This document shows positions 1,177 through 62,541 of a stretch of DNA of 64,000 nt, piece after piece. The DNA is from a virus. The position numbers and the translations under genes were made by a program. Position 1 is the stretch's first letter. Each line of letters begins with the position of its first letter. The DNA lies in IMG/VR virus record IMGVR_UViG_3300045988_121141, positions 1 to 64,000 of that record; one strand, written 5' to 3'. The notes beneath the pieces are model-generated. The model was not told the origin of the DNA and did no database searches. It saw nothing but the letters and a program-made list of their open reading frames with translations.

Positions 1177-1350
1177 TAATTAAGCTAAATTAAATCATTT
1201 TGAATCTTTTTTATTATCAAAAGACATATCTTTGTCCAAAAAAACAAACAGAATGGAAGAAAAAGAGATAAAAGAAGCTATGATTGAAGCCCTGACGCAC
1301 TTAGAGGGGTGTAAGTATTTCGTGGCCACGATAGTAAATAATCGAGAATA

Positions 1351-1650
1351 ATACATAACTCATACAAATCATAAACAATTTGTATCGTATTATGTATAAT
1401 AGCCAAAAGCTATTCCGATTATTAGCCTAAGTGTTGAAATAAACACTACGTTATTTGAGAATATATAGTTACCTACGGATGTTTACCCAAGTCTGTAGCT
1501 CTAAGGTAAGTGATTAAACAATGGTTGTATTCGAGCTATAGTGTTGCTTACGAAAAACCTTAAATAACATTGGCGATGGGTACTAACAGAGTTTTACTCT
1601 GACTTATGTTGAATAAACATTAAAAACGTTTGTAGATATGGTGTACGTAC
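1351..1650 (+). ncRNA. candidate IscB omegaRNA (non-coding leader immediately 5' of iscB)
   Basis: About 290 nt without a long ORF directly upstream of and abutting the IscB start; several local and long-range complementary segments (gtgtt/aacac hairpin near 1433, tagctc..gagcta near 1498/1545, gtaag..cttac). Position matches known IscB omegaRNA architecture. Confidence 0.3.
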
Positions 1651-2864
1651 AAGACATAAATGGTAAACCTATGATGCCAACAACAAGACATGGAAAGGTT
1701 AGGAGACTGCTCAAATCAAACAAAGCAGTCGTTGTAAACCTATGTCCGTTTACCATCAAATTAATGTACGTAACATCTGATTACAAACAAGAAATTGTGT
1801 TAGGCGTTGATGCTGGTACTAAACATGTTGGTTTATCGGCTACAACGAAAAGCAAAGAACTTTACAGTAGTGAAGTAATCCTTAGAAATGATATTGTAGA
1901 TCTTTTGTCTACCAGAAGGGAGCTACGAAGATCAAGACGAAATAGATTGAGATATAGAAAACCTCGTTTTGATAATAGAATAAAAAGTAAGCGTCCGGGA
2001 TGGGTAGCACCTTCGGTGAAATACAAAGTAGACGCCCATATTCGTGTTATTGACAATGTATGTTCTATATTACCAATATCTCGTATTGTTATCGAAGTAG
2101 CTCAATTTGATACTCAGAAGATTAACAATCCTGAAATATCAGGTAAAGAATATCAGGAAGGAGATCAACTTGGTTTTTGGAACGTAAGGGAGTATGTTTT
2201 AGCAAGGGATGGACATAAATGTCAGTATTGTAAAGGAAAATCGAAAGATAAGATCCTTAATGTTCATCACATTGAATCTCGAAAGACTGGAGGAAATTCT
2301 CCATCTAATCTTATTACCTTATGTGAAACATGTCATAAAGAATATCACAAAGGCAATATTAATTTAAAAGTAAAACGAGGCAAGTCGCTTCGCGACGCGG
2401 CCGTAATGGGAATTATGAAATGGAGGTTGTATGAAGGATTAAAGTCTAAATATGACAAAGTTTCTATGACTTTCGGTTATGTTACAAAATACAATAGGAT
2501 TTATAACAATATTGAAAAATCCCATGTTTCGGATGCTTTTATTATTTCTAAGAACTTTAATTCTATAAGGTTGGGTTATTATTATAAAGTAAGATTAATT
2601 AGAAGACATAATCGTCAAATTCACAAACAAAAGATTCCAAAAGGAGGGATAAAAAGACCAAATCAATCTCCTTTTGAAGTTTTTGGTTTCCGATTGTTTG
2701 ATAGGGTTATGTTTGAAAACAGTTATTACTTTATATTTGCAAGGCGTAAAACCGGTAGTTTTAATATTCGAGATATTGATGGTAAAAACCAAAGAGATAT
2801 TACATACAAGAAATTGAAATTATCAAGGTGTAAACGCTTTATGGTACAAAAGGAAATGGATTGA
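1638..2864 (+). CDS. iscB: IscB, IS200/IS605-family RNA-guided HNH/RuvC nuclease (OMEGA system)
   Basis: N-terminal PLMP-like domain (GKPMMPTTRHGKVRRLLKSNKAVVV..PFTIKL), RuvC-I (LGVDAGTKHVGLS), Arg-rich bridge helix (RRELRRSRRNRLRYRKPRFDNR), RuvC-II (IVIEVAQFD), HNH (CQYC..HHIESRKTGG..NLITLCETCHKEYH), RuvC-III (SHVSDAFII); 408 aa. Confidence 0.8.
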   Translation: MVYVQDINGKPMMPTTRHGKVRRLLKSNKAVVVNLCPFTIKLMYVTSDYKQEIVLGVDAGTKHVGLSATTKSKELYSSEVILRNDIVDLLSTRRELRRSRRNRLRYRKPRFDNRIKSKRPGWVAPSVKYKVDAHIRVIDNVCSILPISRIVIEVAQFDTQKINNPEISGKEYQEGDQLGFWNVREYVLARDGHKCQYCKGKSKDKILNVHHIESRKTGGNSPSNLITLCETCHKEYHKGNINLKVKRGKSLRDAAVMGIMKWRLYEGLKSKYDKVSMTFGYVTKYNRIYNNIEKSHVSDAFIISKNFNSIRLGYYYKVRLIRRHNRQIHKQKIPKGGIKRPNQSPFEVFGFRLFDRVMFENSYYFIFARRKTGSFNIRDIDGKNQRDITYKKLKLSRCKRFMVQKEMD

Positions 2865-3358
2865 TTAATTTGAATAAAAATATAGACATGAATCGTTGGT
2901 TTGAAATCACAGTAAAAGCCGAGATTGATAATATCGAGAACGGCAAAAAAAAGAAAGTAACTGAAAAGTATTTGGTAGATGCCTTGTCTTACACAGAGGC
3001 AGAATCAAGATCGTTGGAGATCTTTAAGGATTTGTACAATTCTTTCGAGGTTGTAAAAATTAATCCTATTAAAGTGTCGGAAATCTTTTTCAACGGAGAA
3101 GCTGAGTACTGGTATAAGTGTAAGGTGAATTACATTACACTGGATGAAAAGAAAGGTAAAGAAAAGAAAACTCCATGCTATATGTATATCCAGGCCGGCA
3201 ATCCGAAAGACGCTGAGGCTGTGTTGACTAAAGGTATGCAGGGTACGTTAGGAGACTGGAATTGCGAGTCTATTGTGGAAACGAAAATCATTGAAGTGTT
3301 TAAATACGATCTTCAGAAGGGAGCTGAAAAATTAGGCGAGAAGAAGAGTGAAGAGTAA
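2861..3358 (+). CDS. hypothetical protein (165 aa; alternative start near 2888)
   Basis: ORF overlapping iscB stop (ATGA); protein-like composition. Confidence 0.5.
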   Translation: MINLNKNIDMNRWFEITVKAEIDNIENGKKKKVTEKYLVDALSYTEAESRSLEIFKDLYNSFEVVKINPIKVSEIFFNGEAEYWYKCKVNYITLDEKKGKEKKTPCYMYIQAGNPKDAEAVLTKGMQGTLGDWNCESIVETKIIEVFKYDLQKGAEKLGEKKSEE

Positions 3359-20822: not shown

Positions 20823-22272
20823 AAATAATATGGTGCAAAATAACATTAAAAATAATAGATTCTATTCTGTAATACAAATGTAATTCGTATATTAGATATA
20901 TGATTCATAGACAATATTTATAGTATTAAAAAAATCATGAGATTAGCATACAAGTTCAACATAGGAAACAATGAAAATATATCATCTCTGTGCAAGATTA
21001 GCAATAACTTGTACAATCAGGCATTATATATTTTTAGAGAAACACTTTCTAAAGAAGATAAGTGGTTGTCCTATTTTGAACTTGATTCTATCATGAAGAA
21101 TACCAAGAACTTAGATGGAGACATTAATTACAGATTACTAAAGGCGCAATGTTCTCAACAAGTTCTTCGTATTCTTGATAAGAATATAAAAAGCTATTAC
21201 AAATCGGTCCAAGATTACAAGAAAAATACCAACAAATACAAAGGAAAACCAGGTCTTCCAAATTATAAAAAGAGAGGTTCTGAGTTCAATTTGTATTACA
21301 CGAATCAGAGTTGCAAAATAAAAGATGGGAAAATAATCCTATCAAAAGATCTTTCAATACCCATTCCTCAATATGAGAAGTATTCTGATTTGATAAAAGA
21401 TTTCAAACAGATTAGAATAAAACCATTATCATGTGGATACAAAATAGAAATCATTTATGAGGTAAAAGATGCTGAAGTATCTAAAGGTAGAGAAGAGAAG
21501 ATTGCTTCAATTGATTTAGGAATAGACAATTTTGTAACATTAGTTAGTGAAGATTTTACCTATCTTTTTAGCGGTAATTTTGTTAAATCATATAATCAGG
21601 GATTTAATAAAACACTTGCTAAATTAAATAGCATAAAGGATTTACAAAAGATAAAAGGAACAACAAAACGAATAAAGAAATTATATTATGATAGAGAACA
21701 GTACATAGAAGATGTTTTTCATAAAATCAGTAGAAAGATAGTTGATTTGCTTGTTGATTCTAAGATAACAAAATTAGTTGTAGGTTATAACAAGGGATGG
21801 AAAACTGGAGTAAACATGGGAAAAAGAAACAACCAAAAGTTTACCCAAATCCCTTTTGCGAGATTAGTTAGTTACTTAGAATACAAATGTGAATTAGTTG
21901 GTATTGAAATAGTTATTCATGAAGAATCATATACTTCGAAATGTGATTCTCTTGCATTTGAGAAGATAGGAAAACATGAAAACTATTTAGGAAAGAGGAA
22001 GAAACGAGGATTGTTTCAATCTTCAGTAGGAAAACTCATAAATGCTGATGTAAATGGAGCATTAAACATTATGAGAAAAGTAGTCGGTGATTCCTGTGAA
22101 TCAATTCGTAGGATAATCGATAGAGGGTTATTGTTTAACCCGGTAAGGATTACGAATGTATTTTGCTAAGAAGTACATTTTGAAACTTATAAAGAAATGT
22201 AATAGATTTTTATTTAATTTAATATTTTTCATAACATCGGAGATTCTATTAAAATCGTAAAAGTAAAATAAT
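20823..22272 (+). mobile_element. IS200/IS605-like TnpB-only (TnpA-less) insertion
   Basis: Single tnpB-like gene flanked by AT-rich non-coding arms (114 nt left, 103 nt right) sharing short motifs (atagattctatt / gagattctatt; aaatgtaat in both arms), inserted between two tightly spaced phage genes. Confidence 0.45.
20937..22169 (+). CDS. tnpB: TnpB-like RNA-guided nuclease homolog, apparently lacking RuvC-II Glu and the zinc-finger Cys (possibly nuclease-dead)
   Basis: N-terminal MRLAYKFNI.., RuvC-I IASIDLGIDNFV, YTSKCD, RuvC-III NADVNGALNIMRK; the segment aligned to the E-D-L-N RuvC-II motif reads LVVGYNKGWK (no acidic residue) and the CxxC..CxxC finger is absent. Confidence 0.7.
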   Translation: MRLAYKFNIGNNENISSLCKISNNLYNQALYIFRETLSKEDKWLSYFELDSIMKNTKNLDGDINYRLLKAQCSQQVLRILDKNIKSYYKSVQDYKKNTNKYKGKPGLPNYKKRGSEFNLYYTNQSCKIKDGKIILSKDLSIPIPQYEKYSDLIKDFKQIRIKPLSCGYKIEIIYEVKDAEVSKGREEKIASIDLGIDNFVTLVSEDFTYLFSGNFVKSYNQGFNKTLAKLNSIKDLQKIKGTTKRIKKLYYDREQYIEDVFHKISRKIVDLLVDSKITKLVVGYNKGWKTGVNMGKRNNQKFTQIPFARLVSYLEYKCELVGIEIVIHEESYTSKCDSLAFEKIGKHENYLGKRKKRGLFQSSVGKLINADVNGALNIMRKVVGDSCESIRRIIDRGLLFNPVRITNVFC

Positions 22273-32686: not shown

Positions 32687-32688
32687 GA

Positions 32689-32964
32689 CTATAAATTTAA
32701 TATTCCGTTTTTACCAATATGTTTCTTTTCTTCTTCAGTAGGCCATTCTTTCTTGAACTTACCATGCCACGTTCCAGGAACTACCACCACTTCGCCTCCC
32801 TTACTATATTCAATAGCGGCACATTCAGAACAAAGAGGCTTGCCTTCATATCCCTTTAGCGACTTATCGTAAATACGATTCTTACAAGGTCTTATAAGAG
32901 CCCAGTAATATGATGTGGCTGTATTATCTATACAGCCACATTTTGAACAAACAAACAAACTCAT
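32689..32964 (-). CDS. zinc-ribbon protein (91 aa)
   Basis: CSKCGC...CSEC. Confidence 0.4.
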   Translation of the reverse strand: MSLFVCSKCGCIDNTATSYYWALIRPCKNRIYDKSLKGYEGKPLCSECAAIEYSKGGEVVVVPGTWHGKFKKEWPTEEEKKHIGKNGILNL

Positions 32965-59669: not shown

Positions 59670-61304
59670 TTAAATCTTAATCTTCTTAATTTCATCAATC
59701 ATATTCTTATATCCGCAGAACTTGCTGTTAATAACATCGAAGATAGATTCTGACCAGCCAGCTATGTTCAAGATATTAGATCCTCTGTAAAACATCTCAC
59801 TTCCATATCCTTGAATAGAAATAGAAACGATTTTGCAATTTGGATTCACTTTCTTGAACCCTTTCAAAAGTTCGGCGAATTTGCCATATCCATAACTGGA
59901 ACTTTTCTCCCATACAACAGATTCACCGTCTCCTATCTGCATATCTGAAATAACGTACAAGTTATCTACTTTGATCTTATCTTTAACGCACTTATCCAAG
60001 AATGCAAAAAGACCGTTTTCAGTGGCACCACCGCATTCTCCTCCGGCAGTAAAAGATTTTTTGTTATTCCATAAAACACCTTTACTTCTATCATATTCGT
60101 AATTGATAAGTTTGTCACCAAACATACCAATAAATACGTCAGGAAGCACAGAAGCAATCATACAGCCAAACAAGTTGCCAATGACAGCCGTACTTGTTTT
60201 GCTAAAGGCAGACACCTCAGAAGATCCTCCCATATCTCCACGTACAGAGCCAGAGTGGTCAATCAGGATAGCCGACCGCCCCTCCAATACCGGCAGGTTC
60301 TTGCAGGAGATGGTTATGGCTTTCTCCAACGCATCTAAAATCTTATATTTGTTACGCGCTGTTAATTTAGCACGTTTTTTATCCGACTCAAATACAATAT
60401 CATTATCGGAACCATCAGTGCCTATATTTTCAACCTCTTTGAAAGCTGAAGCAAAACGGAAAGGAAGCATCTTCGAATTAAGCACCTTCTCTTCTATTGT
60501 AAGCTGCCTACAAACTTCATCTATTTGATCAGGTGCGTATTTGATTATGTTTACAAGATTACGAACCATATTAAAAATAGGCATACCTTTTACATTAGAA
60601 ACCACGTCCCGAATAGCGTCACCTAAAGCTTCTTTCTTTTCCTTATTGTCTTTCTTATCCTGACCGGCCTTAGACATCTCTTTTTCAAGAATCTTGCTTT
60701 CGTATAATCCAGACAAAGATCGACCTTCTATAAGATACTGGAAAGCTGTTTTATTAACCTGATTGCTTTTGGGGTGAAATAAATTCACAAGATCAATCAT
60801 CGTAATAACCCTACTGTCCATCTTGTACTTGTCAATCCGATACGGATCAAGACCTTCCAGGGCCGTCTTAAACCCTTTCTTAATAGCGCTGGATATTCCT
60901 CTTAACTTCTTTGGATTTTTGTCGTTAAGAGCCGCATAGCAGCCAAGGATTTCGCTCATATCATCAGGACGCATAACGATCTTATTATAGAACCTTGAAG
61001 CCCATTCCTTACCCGATGCTTTGCTGGCAAGGACAGAAGCCATAAGATGCGTTACCGACCTAAGCTTTCCTTCTTTCCTGACATACAATGCTGTTTGTGC
61101 TGCGAAATATGGATCTACTTGATCCATAAGGTCCTTAATCCTGTTCACCTTGTCTTTTTCTTTCTCATAATAAGAATCAGACAACATGGTAGTCATTACC
61201 GTAGATACCAACTCTTCTTCTGCGTTAGGCTTATACGCCTTCTCTCCCATGTGATTCACGATCGTAGGTTTAACACCTTCATCCTTTTTGTTAAACTTTC
61301 CCAT
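59670..61304 (-). CDS. rsr: Ro60 ortholog (TROVE domain plus C-terminal von Willebrand A domain with MIDAS)
   Basis: N-terminal TROVE-like segments alignable to Ro60 (..TMLSDSYYEKEKDK..RIKDLMDQ..HLMASVLASKAS vs human GGTYYIKEQKL..ALIRLIED..FALAIASQCS); C-terminal vWA: ILIDHSGSVRG (DxSxS MIDAS), GGECGGATENG; 544 aa like Ro60. Confidence 0.75.
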   Translation of the reverse strand: MGKFNKKDEGVKPTIVNHMGEKAYKPNAEEELVSTVMTTMLSDSYYEKEKDKVNRIKDLMDQVDPYFAAQTALYVRKEGKLRSVTHLMASVLASKASGKEWASRFYNKIVMRPDDMSEILGCYAALNDKNPKKLRGISSAIKKGFKTALEGLDPYRIDKYKMDSRVITMIDLVNLFHPKSNQVNKTAFQYLIEGRSLSGLYESKILEKEMSKAGQDKKDNKEKKEALGDAIRDVVSNVKGMPIFNMVRNLVNIIKYAPDQIDEVCRQLTIEEKVLNSKMLPFRFASAFKEVENIGTDGSDNDIVFESDKKRAKLTARNKYKILDALEKAITISCKNLPVLEGRSAILIDHSGSVRGDMGGSSEVSAFSKTSTAVIGNLFGCMIASVLPDVFIGMFGDKLINYEYDRSKGVLWNNKKSFTAGGECGGATENGLFAFLDKCVKDKIKVDNLYVISDMQIGDGESVVWEKSSSYGYGKFAELLKGFKKVNPNCKIVSISIQGYGSEMFYRGSNILNIAGWSESIFDVINSKFCGYKNMIDEIKKIKI

Positions 61305-61332
61305 TTGTTGTTGTTTTCTTTAAAGTGTTATA

Positions 61333-61424: not shown

Positions 61425-61530
61425 AATCAAATAATGGATTTGAACCATTGACACATATCTTAAAAGGATATTGCTCTACCATCTGAGCTAAATTCGAAGT
61501 AACTAACCCCATCACCACTCATTAGTTTCT
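61425..61530 (-). ncRNA. tRNA-like module 1 (D-arm, UUU anticodon-like arm, T-arm) lacking a conventional acceptor stem; flanks form a long imperfect stem
   Basis: Minus strand: TAGCTCAGATGGTAGAGC (D-arm), ATATC-CTTTTAA-GATAT, GTGTC, AATGG-TTCAAAT-CCATT; 5' TCGAATT cannot pair with 3' ATTTGAT, but AATGAG..GTTAG upstream pairs with CTAAC..CTCATT downstream. Confidence 0.45.
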
Positions 61531-61760: not shown

Positions 61761-61903
61761 TTTTGTATTATAATCTCTCTTGATTACGATGCAAATATAG
61801 ACATTCAAATATGATTTACAAATTAAAATGATTTAAAATAGATTAATTTGAATAAATTAACACACAGACAATATAATAGGAAGTATTGTATTGTATATTT
61901 GCG

Positions 61904-61911
61904 TATAACAT
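61904..61911 (+). promoter_or_regulatory. Bacteroidota-type -7 box TAtaTTTG upstream of T5orf172 gene
   Basis: Exact TAnnTTTG 16 nt before ATG at 61927. Confidence 0.35.
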
Positions 61912-61926
61912 AAAAAAAATAAATAC

Positions 61927-62538
61927 ATGGATAGATATATTGTTGATTTACTATTAAATGAAGACGACTCTCCGTTTAATAGTAAAAATTTTAAAATAAT
62001 AGAATTTGAAGAAAATGACAATGAAAAAGTATATAACCTATTCAATAAAGTGTACGGAGAAAATGTAAGTATTATTTTCATTGATAGTGGATTTGGAGTA
62101 TTAACGTTTATAAATGATAACATGATGAGACAAGTTGATTTGTATATCATGCTGCAATCTTTATCCGTTATATACGAAGATGCTATAGATGTAATATCCA
62201 TATTGTTCGGTAAAAACGCATCACTCCTTACAGTATGTAACAAACCAGCCCCAGTCACGCATGATAAAAATTCCAGTGGTGATATTAATACCTATATAAT
62301 TAAAGATAGTTCGAGTGGTTTATTTAAAATAGGGAAAAGCCGTAACCCTATTGAAAGACTTAAAACGCTATCTATCGGGAATCCTAATTTATCTATAATA
62401 GGAGTATGCAATAAAAATGTAGAATTATTAATACATAAAGAATATGATTCGGTAAGAGTAGGTGGAGAATGGTTCAGAATGGATAATAATGATATTTGCC
62501 ATATAATAAAGAAATACGGATTTATATGTGTAGAATAA
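61927..62538 (+). CDS. T5orf172/MUG113-type GIY-YIG-superfamily domain protein (203 aa)
   Basis: C-terminal GLFKIGKSRNPIERLKTLSIGNP...ELLIHKEYDSVRVGGEWFRMD matches T5orf172 domain pattern; lone plus-strand gene in minus-strand block. Confidence 0.55.
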   Translation: MDRYIVDLLLNEDDSPFNSKNFKIIEFEENDNEKVYNLFNKVYGENVSIIFIDSGFGVLTFINDNMMRQVDLYIMLQSLSVIYEDAIDVISILFGKNASLLTVCNKPAPVTHDKNSSGDINTYIIKDSSSGLFKIGKSRNPIERLKTLSIGNPNLSIIGVCNKNVELLIHKEYDSVRVGGEWFRMDNNDICHIIKKYGFICVE

Positions 62539-62541
62539 AAA

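Follow-up and report, generated by a model that had tools for sequence, protein, structure and literature searches.

A probable selfish, RNA-guided IscB-omegaRNA homing element in a crAss-like gut phage

Introduction

In ISGst5 of Geobacillus stearothermophilus, the omegaRNA is encoded upstream of the iscB open reading frame (ORF), and its guide is derived from the DNA flanking the element. When the empty ISGst5 site is cut, the element is reinstalled, and a two-base difference separates self from non-self (Meers et al. 2023, PMC10055086). In this study, we analysed a viral stretch of 64,000 nucleotides (positions 1 to 64,000 of the IMG/VR record IMGVR_UViG_3300045988_121141; hereafter, the window), which holds a 1550-bp element with the same arrangement, that is, an omegaRNA upstream of iscB and a predicted guide taken from the flank. 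The target-adjacent motif (TAM) of ISGst5, TTCAT, is the reverse complement of the ATGAA that flanks the window element at both relevant sites, and in both elements the RNA-side end motif is two bases off the TAM (here ATAAT against ATGAA). ISGst5 is chromosomal, bacterial, mobilised by a TnpA of the same genome, and palindromic at both ends. In contrast, the window element is phage-borne, neither TnpA nor a TAM-side hairpin was found in the searches described below, only ATG is constant across its sites, and its likely target is a co-infecting genome rather than a sister chromosome.

The OgeuIscB-omegaRNA complex (PDB 7UTN, 7XHT, 8CSZ) shares with the window the order of PLMP, RuvC-I, bridge helix, RuvC-II, HNH, and RuvC-III, as well as a HEARO-type omegaRNA, and its protein matches the window protein in sequence at 1e-40 to 3e-42. 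OgeuIscB has 496 aa, whereas the protein here has 408 aa and a C-terminal stretch of 75 residues without sequence match. The published TAM of OgeuIscB is NWRRNA, as opposed to the inferred ATG here, and the window omegaRNA carries an insertion of about 70 nt, forming two hairpins, inside the P1 stem.

The Seg and Mob nucleases of T4-like phages ('intronless homing', PMC13565253) are also encoded by small genes between conserved phage genes, present in some relatives and absent from others. There, too, the nuclease is expected to cut the gene-lacking genome in a co-infection, and the gene and its flanks are copied by recombination. Seg and Mob recognise their targets by protein, whereas here we propose recognition by a flank-derived RNA guide and a 3-nt motif; the window element also has sharp, transposon-like ends and many sites. 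The TnpB elements of IS605 and IS607 follow the same OMEGA logic, but TnpB is the ancestor of Cas12, the guide is at the 3' end of the RNA, and the TAM is 5' of the target. TnpA-independent spread of IS605 in plasmid populations has been reported (cited in PMC13565253), and a 2026 review described the copying of such elements into co-infecting phages or plasmids as still theoretical (PMC13565253). IscB is already known in phages, where its homologues are common in the records as 'HNH endonuclease'. Our literature search returned no description of this crAss-phage IscB family or its ATG motif, and no report of IscB homing naturally from phage to phage.

Here, we report that the element at 1338-2887 is likely a selfish RNA-guided homing element, a non-autonomous IscB-omegaRNA element of the OMEGA, ISC/IS200-IS605 type, and not a domesticated gene. 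Judged from its sequence and that of its relatives, it probably copies itself between co-infecting phages. The protein and the RNA are identified with confidence as IscB and omegaRNA, and from the comparisons described below we infer cleavage, homing, the source of the transposase, and a TnpA-like route to new sites.

Results

Limits of the element

The features of the locus are as follows (window coordinates).

1338-2887, plus strand: mobile element of 1550 bp, comprising the omegaRNA scaffold, iscB, and a 23-nt tail; defined by the limits of the shared block and by occupied/empty pairs.
1638-2864, plus strand: iscB gene, 408 aa; defined by Pfam, NCBIfam, and structure matches, motifs, and substitution rates.
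About 1338-1607, plus strand: omegaRNA scaffold of the HEARO family; defined by the Rfam match, RNAalifold, and P1 pairing.
1322-1337, plus strand: predicted guide segment, GTGGCCACGATAGTAA; 16 nt of flank abutting the scaffold, with conservation stopping exactly at 1338.
2865-2887, plus strand: 23-nt tail, TTAATTTGAATAAAAATATAGAC; right end, conserved among copies with unrelated downstream genes.
2888-2890, plus strand: ATG abutting the right end; start codon of the DUF4494 gene and candidate TAM.
1254-1350, plus strand: remnant of a small phage ORF; the first 28 codons are kept, and the frame then continues into element sequence up to a TAA at 1348-1350.

About 160 related phage loci were compared to define the limits of the element. 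A scan of IMG/VR gave 286 relatives of the IscB element, and 80 viral loci were fetched (81-95% protein identity, on phage contigs of 80-190 kb, some with two copies). In blastn against these 80 loci, one common block was found, from 1338-1342 to 2883-2892 of the window, with unrelated flanks around it. The block begins with ATAATCG (1338), or with ATTCTCG, ATATCCG, or GTAACCG in sub-families, and ends with ...AATATAGAC, followed by ATG. The same element family occupies at least 17 different genomic contexts in crAss-like gut phages.

A relative used for comparison was phage csAssE-Sib (OR575929, human gut, 151 kb), which is collinear with the entire window and 88-89% identical to its first 6 kb. 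Limits of 1339-2847, obtained from csAssE-Sib alone, were rejected, since other contexts show 2848-2887 to be inside the element. The gene downstream of iscB encodes DUF4494 (Pfam 6.8e-41; 2888-3358), and its start is ATG 2888, as in csAssE-Sib. A start at TTG 2861, overlapping the iscB stop, was rejected; the apparent overlap of the two genes is an artefact of ORF calling. The original prediction had described such an overlap, had seen no separate right end, and had considered the element possibly domesticated or degraded at its ends. None of this was upheld: the right end is discrete at 2887/2888, and since the sharp ends at 1338 and 2887 are common to copies in at least 17 other contexts, the element is neither end-degraded nor obviously domesticated.

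The tail at 2865-2887 supplies the region upstream of the next phage gene. Its first part, 2865-2881 (TTAATTTGAATAAAAAT), forms a direct repeat with the leader just before the iscB start, 1604-1620 (TTATGTTGAATAAACAT), so that the downstream phage gene receives from the element a copy of the translation-start region of iscB.

IscB protein

The 408-aa protein matched Pfam RRXRR (1.2e-60, residues 2-175) and HNH (1.6e-10, residues 195-238), and the NCBIfam model NF040563, 'RNA-guided endonuclease IscB' (guided_IscB), scored 365.2 bits over residues 2-303, above its curated equivalog cut-off of 175 bits. The closest solved structures were IscB chains (3e-42). In the translation, PMMP at residues 11-14 forms the PLMP region, and an Arg-rich helix lies at about residues 92-111. 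The RuvC residues D58 (RuvC-I), E153 (RuvC-II), and H296 and D299 (RuvC-III) align with the catalytic positions of OgeuIscB. The HNH domain is inserted in RuvC, with two CxxC pairs, C195xxC198 and C229xxC232, and with H210, H211, and N224 present. Among 22 homologues (79-94% identity), E153, H210, H211, N224, H296, and D299 were invariant, and D58 was at least 90% conserved. The comparison with IscB profiles and structures, which the original prediction had proposed, thereby bore out its description of an intact IscB with a PLMP-like N-terminus, RuvC-I/II/III, HNH, two CxxC pairs, an Arg-rich helix, and intact catalytic residues.

The C-terminal 118 aa (residues 291-408) had no sequence match in PDB. 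An AlphaFold2 model from a shallow alignment reached a predicted local distance difference test (pLDDT) score of 51.5 overall, and of about 70 in the beta-rich residues 350-395. With this full-length, low-confidence model, the top Foldseek matches were IscB structures, at low TM-scores. We conclude that the 408-aa ORF is a full-length IscB with its catalytic residues present, for which RNA-guided, TAM-dependent cleavage is predicted only.

The ratio of nonsynonymous to synonymous substitution rates (dN/dS) was 0.06-0.13 for the window iscB against 12 copies at other sites, with dS up to 1-2, and the 408-codon frame was intact in 52 of the 52 full-length copies examined. The gene is under purifying selection. 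The family is large: over 8000 proteins in the database reach E <= 1e-30, and their clusters, from contigs of about 150 kb, include ones with 3063, 1150, and 1116 members. The closest match in a 'bacterial genome' (79%) was on a 20-kb contig of 'Vibrio olivae' (NZ_JBHMEP010000019.1; locus L162). This contig also matches the major capsid gene of csAssE-Sib at the DNA level, and it probably comes from a crAss-like phage, despite its place in a Vibrio assembly.

OmegaRNA scaffold and predicted guide

The original prediction had placed an omegaRNA in the leader of iscB and had suggested a covariance-model search for it. In this search, the Rfam HEARO model (RF02033) matched 1396-1587, within the leader 1177-1637 and on the iscB strand, at 101.2 bits (E 7e-21), above the gathering score of 83 bits; it was the sole HEARO match in the 64 kb. 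The scaffold is wider than the Rfam match, at about 1338-1607. RNAalifold with 28 diverse copies gave 63 consensus pairs, of which 17 showed compensatory changes, and the core is followed by a terminal hairpin (1587-1601) that is in the 28-copy consensus and outside the Rfam model.

The scaffold opens with the P1 stem, in which 1338-1344 (ATAATCG) pairs with 1416-1422 (CGATTAT), enclosing a long hairpin (1348-1400) and a short one (1398-1414). The pairing of the first stem given by cmscan was rejected as mis-paired; the register 1338-1344/1416-1422 was 89.6% paired and the shifted registers 16-57%. P1 co-varies across sub-families (ATATCCG/CGGATAT, GTAACCG/TGGTTAT) with two compensatory pairs, and one sub-family has two internal mismatches; the covariation support for this stem is moderate. 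The 5' region of the omegaRNA, which is the RNA-side end of the element, folds strongly (z = -5.4), and the 5' end of the scaffold coincides with the boundary of conservation between copies at 1338. By the published rule for IscB, the guide lies 5' of the scaffold and is derived from the flank; since the scaffold starts at 1338, the segment 1322-1337 is predicted to be the guide. In work on OgeuIscB, the guide is reportedly 16 nt long.

Three further HEARO matches above the gathering score (87-95 bits) were found in related contigs (L036 8446-8690, L045 113-357, and L062 2703-2943). No iscB ORF follows those of L036 and L062, and all three contigs carry a complete IscB element a few kb away. 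These loci may be remnants, or else guide RNAs that stand alone and act in trans.

The protein and RNA data together bear on a simpler explanation, namely a free-standing, protein-guided HNH homing endonuclease with no RNA guidance. It is in keeping with current annotation, as 38 phage records and PHROG phrog_119 name IscB homologues 'HNH endonuclease'. However, the full split RuvC, bridge helix, and PLMP region match the IscB equivalog model, and a HEARO RNA above the gathering threshold, with covariation, lies directly upstream. We regard this explanation as extremely improbable.

Insertion sites and the ATG motif

In all of the right-flank contexts (at least 17), the flank opens with ATG, and the element is oriented as the next gene. 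Some of the fetched loci, and the window itself, carry empty versions of sites that are occupied elsewhere. In four clean occupied/empty pairs (L002/L045, L038/window 61298-61308, L048/L042, and L045/L002), the element stands between the left flank and ATG, with neither duplication nor loss of bases at the junction. The pairs leave a 2-nt ambiguity, AT, and in two of them the phages themselves differ by a small indel or substitution; in L038, a short left-flank repeat is one CAA unit different from that of the empty site. At a fifth site, upstream of a tRNA, the empty alleles read GTG and the occupied alleles ATG. At this site, L047 lacks 59 nt, and the resulting junction again lies 5' of an ATG in the empty allele. 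Altogether, ATG was found at seven of the eight empty-site junctions, including non-start ATGs. Three junctions are at ATG positions other than the start of the next gene, and the left junction of the window is the demonstrably non-start one; the junction of L047 is a further non-start example.

The element is inserted without target duplication beside a short fixed motif, and the nuclease is predicted to need this motif. The ISGst5 IscB has a TAM that reads TTCAT on the transposase strand, which is ATGAA 3' of the target (Meers et al. 2023, PMC10055086); both relevant sites of the window read ATGAA, the reverse complement of TTCAT.

The empty site of this family at window 61298-61308 is on the minus strand, next to tRNA-Lys (61425-61498), and L038 carries the element at its counterpart (...AAAACAACAA/element/AATGGGA). 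In a third sub-family (L046, L053, L059, L068, L069, and L078; IscB of 400-406 aa), the flanks map to about 32688-32951 of the window, minus strand. In these phages, the element stands in place of a stretch of about 263 nt with a 91-aa ORF (32689-32964), which makes this an insertion-plus-replacement site.

Alleles at the window locus

An intact small ORF of 83-86 codons lies between a 221-aa gene and the DUF4494 gene in csAssE-Sib and in 80 further loci; it had no Pfam or PHROG family match. Homology between the window and csAssE-Sib stops at 1338. The intact alleles L082-L161 read on as ...GATAGTAA/ATGAAGAGG..., and the window-like intact alleles as ...GTGGCTACGATAGTAA/ATGAAGAGG..., where the slash marks the left junction of the window, at an ATG that is not in the reading frame. 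In the window, the element connects site A (this internal ATG of the small ORF) with site B (the ATG of DUF4494), and the intervening 180 bp are absent. In four loci (L005, L006, L018, and L023), site C, the small ORF's own ATG, is joined to site B. The common left junctions at this locus are type A (10 loci) and type C (4-6 loci). At either one, the intact allele has an ATG immediately at the junction, and each of these two successful junctions deletes part or all of the small phage ORF. Left junctions without ATG were singletons, and five flank singletons (L013, L015, L020, L024, and L026) have small deletions or duplications. The A-B structure possibly arose by recombination between two nearby copies, or as an adjacent deletion made by a transposase.

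Matches of the predicted guide beside the candidate TAM, which the original prediction had suggested as a check, were found in the phage loci. In 59 of the 81 intact sister alleles, the guide GTGGCCACGATAGTAA matches with one TAM-distal mismatch and is followed by ATG; this one-mismatch target is GTGGCTACGATAGTAA. In occupied alleles, the guide is followed by ATA, the first bases of the element. Guide and motif are arranged as would be expected of a nuclease that cleaves the uninterrupted allele but not its own. Of the roles first considered for this IscB, that of a homing or selfish element fits best, as the predicted guide is flank-derived and matches the uninterrupted sister allele beside ATG.

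In the csAssE-type alleles (L082-L102, and L001 4027-4032), a synonymous change of AAT to AAC turns the guide-adjacent ATG into ACG. Such alleles might be immune to the IscB of the window. No selection for ACG is inferred, because this allele class differs at many other positions.

Presence and absence of the element were then compared at one site, marked by a common DUF4494 flank, among 19 IscB-positive and 76 IscB-negative loci. Farther than about 0.8 kb from the element, the IscB-positive genomes equal the IscB-negative ones in diversity. At 400-800 nt downstream, the IscB-positive genomes have a common haplotype, with no clean co-conversion gradient. The shared haplotype is suggestive of co-conversion, and the flank diversity fits spread by recombination without proving it.

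We also considered that the phage has co-opted the IscB-omegaRNA with a fixed guide against the host chromosome, a defence locus, or unrelated competitors, and that mobility has been lost. No transposase was found in the element or its neighbourhood, iscB is co-oriented in the block of replication genes, and purifying selection is strong, all of which would suit a domesticated nuclease. However, what occupies the guide position is plain flanking sequence, different for each insertion site. Near-identical phages differ in whether they carry the element at a given locus, the element occupies at least 17 sites, and the guide of the window matches the sister allele of its own locus. Domestication is quite unlikely on this evidence.

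A decaying relic, immobile and inactive and persisting by hitch-hiking alone, would explain the absence of a transposase from the element, the deletion in the left flank, and the small deletions or duplications beside the scaffold in the five singletons. It is at odds with the intact reading frames and low dN/dS, with catalytic residues that are invariant or nearly so, with omegaRNA pairs kept through compensatory changes, and with a family of thousands of sequences. We consider this alternative very unlikely.

Phage, gene neighbourhood, and other mobile features

The crAss-type ring and muzzle proteins and BACON domains are encoded in csAssE-Sib and in the contigs with close IscB copies, and the window host of the IscB element is a crAss-like gut phage. 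The gene is flanked by small ORFs, followed by a replication factor, a primase/helicase, and DnaB, with NinG also among the neighbours; iscB is placed within, and co-oriented with, the phage's replication-gene block. A scan for sigma-70 promoters gave matches at chance level only, and phages of this group probably use other promoters.

The window holds a second OMEGA-type element at 20833-22232, with a 410-aa TnpB (ORF 20937-22169, plus strand; Pfam OrfB_IS605 3.9e-21, Cas12f1-like TNB, PHROG 506 'transposase'). It is a 1.4-kb segment without TnpA; csAssE-Sib lacks this segment and has a small ORF of about 190 nt in its place. The annotation of csAssE-Sib itself lists two TnpB elements. At 61927-62538, plus strand, a 203-aa ORF with T5orf172/MUG113 (GIY-YIG-like) domains lies in a segment (61861-62541) unmatched in csAssE-Sib, and it may be a free-standing homing endonuclease gene. 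In one phage (L175 12957-17319), a 407-aa TnpB is found where the tail-lysozyme gene of relatives (about 1200 aa) is replaced by ORFs of 639 and 312 aa.

Discussion

The homing element that we favour would work as follows. The phage's own rightward transcription would yield an RNA with 1322-1337 as its 5' 16-nt guide. The IscB-omegaRNA would then cut co-infecting sister genomes that carry the intact allele, with a guide match followed by ATG; the predicted target is GTGGC(C/T)ACGATAGTAA and then ATG. Its own copy would be spared, since there the same 16 nt run directly into the element, which begins with ATA. With the IscB-bearing genome as template, recombinational repair would put the element in place of the 3' part of the small ORF, which would amount to homing or bring at least a competitive advantage. 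Colonisation of new ATG sites would rely on a TnpA-type single-strand transposase acting in trans, as in other IscB elements.

Several results weigh against this proposal. The window structure is an insertion plus a 180-bp deletion and not a simple insertion. Simple insertions at site A, or at site B with the small ORF intact, numbered zero in IMG/VR, and in metagenomes a search for them gave two matches only, both unrelated chance matches. None of the sampled intact alleles combined a perfect guide match with ATG, the best having one mismatch, and in 22 csAssE-type intact alleles a guide match with 0-2 mismatches was followed by ACG. The ATG is in most cases the start codon of the following gene, so its constancy may partly reflect selection for insertions that do no harm between genes. 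Weak tblastn probes for the TnpA of IS608, IS200, and ISDra2 gave no match in either the window or 1.37 Mb of related loci. No TnpA was annotated in csAssE-Sib or, by the Pfam labels of neighbours, beside the P0008 copies. At the ATG-side end, single-sequence DNA folds gave no subterminal hairpin (z = +0.3 and +1.0), and an alifold of 11 aligned copies gave no conserved hairpin.

Canonical IS200/IS605 ends carry subterminal hairpins. In the window element, strong folding was found at the RNA-side end only, no Y1 (HUH) TnpA was found, and the 1550 bp of 1338-2887 contain no transposase gene. A circle-junction or tandem pattern, with the right end joined to the left, was seen in none of the viral and metagenome contigs, although assemblies rarely hold such molecules. 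According to the literature, most IscB/HEARO loci are without TnpA.

These results leave room for the same element colonising new sites without a Y1 TnpA, through a recombinase that exchanges at the AT dinucleotide, in the manner of IS607, or through IscB-dependent recombination and repair. The AT at both junctions, with 2-nt ambiguity at the clean sites, would suit such a route, as would the failure to detect TnpA or an ATG-side end hairpin and the adjacent deletions that terminate at ATG sites. Nevertheless, no serine recombinase is nearby (csAssE-Sib annotation and Pfam labels of neighbours), IS607 elements carry TnpB and use GG targets, two copies (L070 and L073) are without the initial AT, and the empty allele of the tRNA site reads GT where AT would be required. 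Moreover, a characterised IscB element has a TnpA-linked TAM that agrees with the motif here. We regard this route as unlikely.

A bolder version of the homing proposal is a natural RNA-guided gene drive among crAss-like gut phages, with no need for a transposase of its own kind. In this version, the element would cut and convert sister genomes, would be re-programmed by rearrangements that place a new ATG-adjacent flank at the scaffold, and would reach new ATG sites by a non-canonical (non-Y1) route, the last because one end is without the hairpin that a Y1 enzyme needs. We consider this version doubtful, and the TnpA-assisted homing element remains our preferred reading.

IscB-omegaRNA systems are the ancestors of Cas9, and their demonstrated natural role is the restoration of a transposon after its excision in bacteria. 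Many of the genes that phage records list as 'HNH endonuclease' (PHROG 119) likely encode IscB. The present data predict a 408-aa nuclease with a short, ATG-type motif. Since occupied and empty alleles, a predicted guide, and the adjacent motif are all recorded in the genomes, RNA-guided homing between viruses becomes directly testable in this family.

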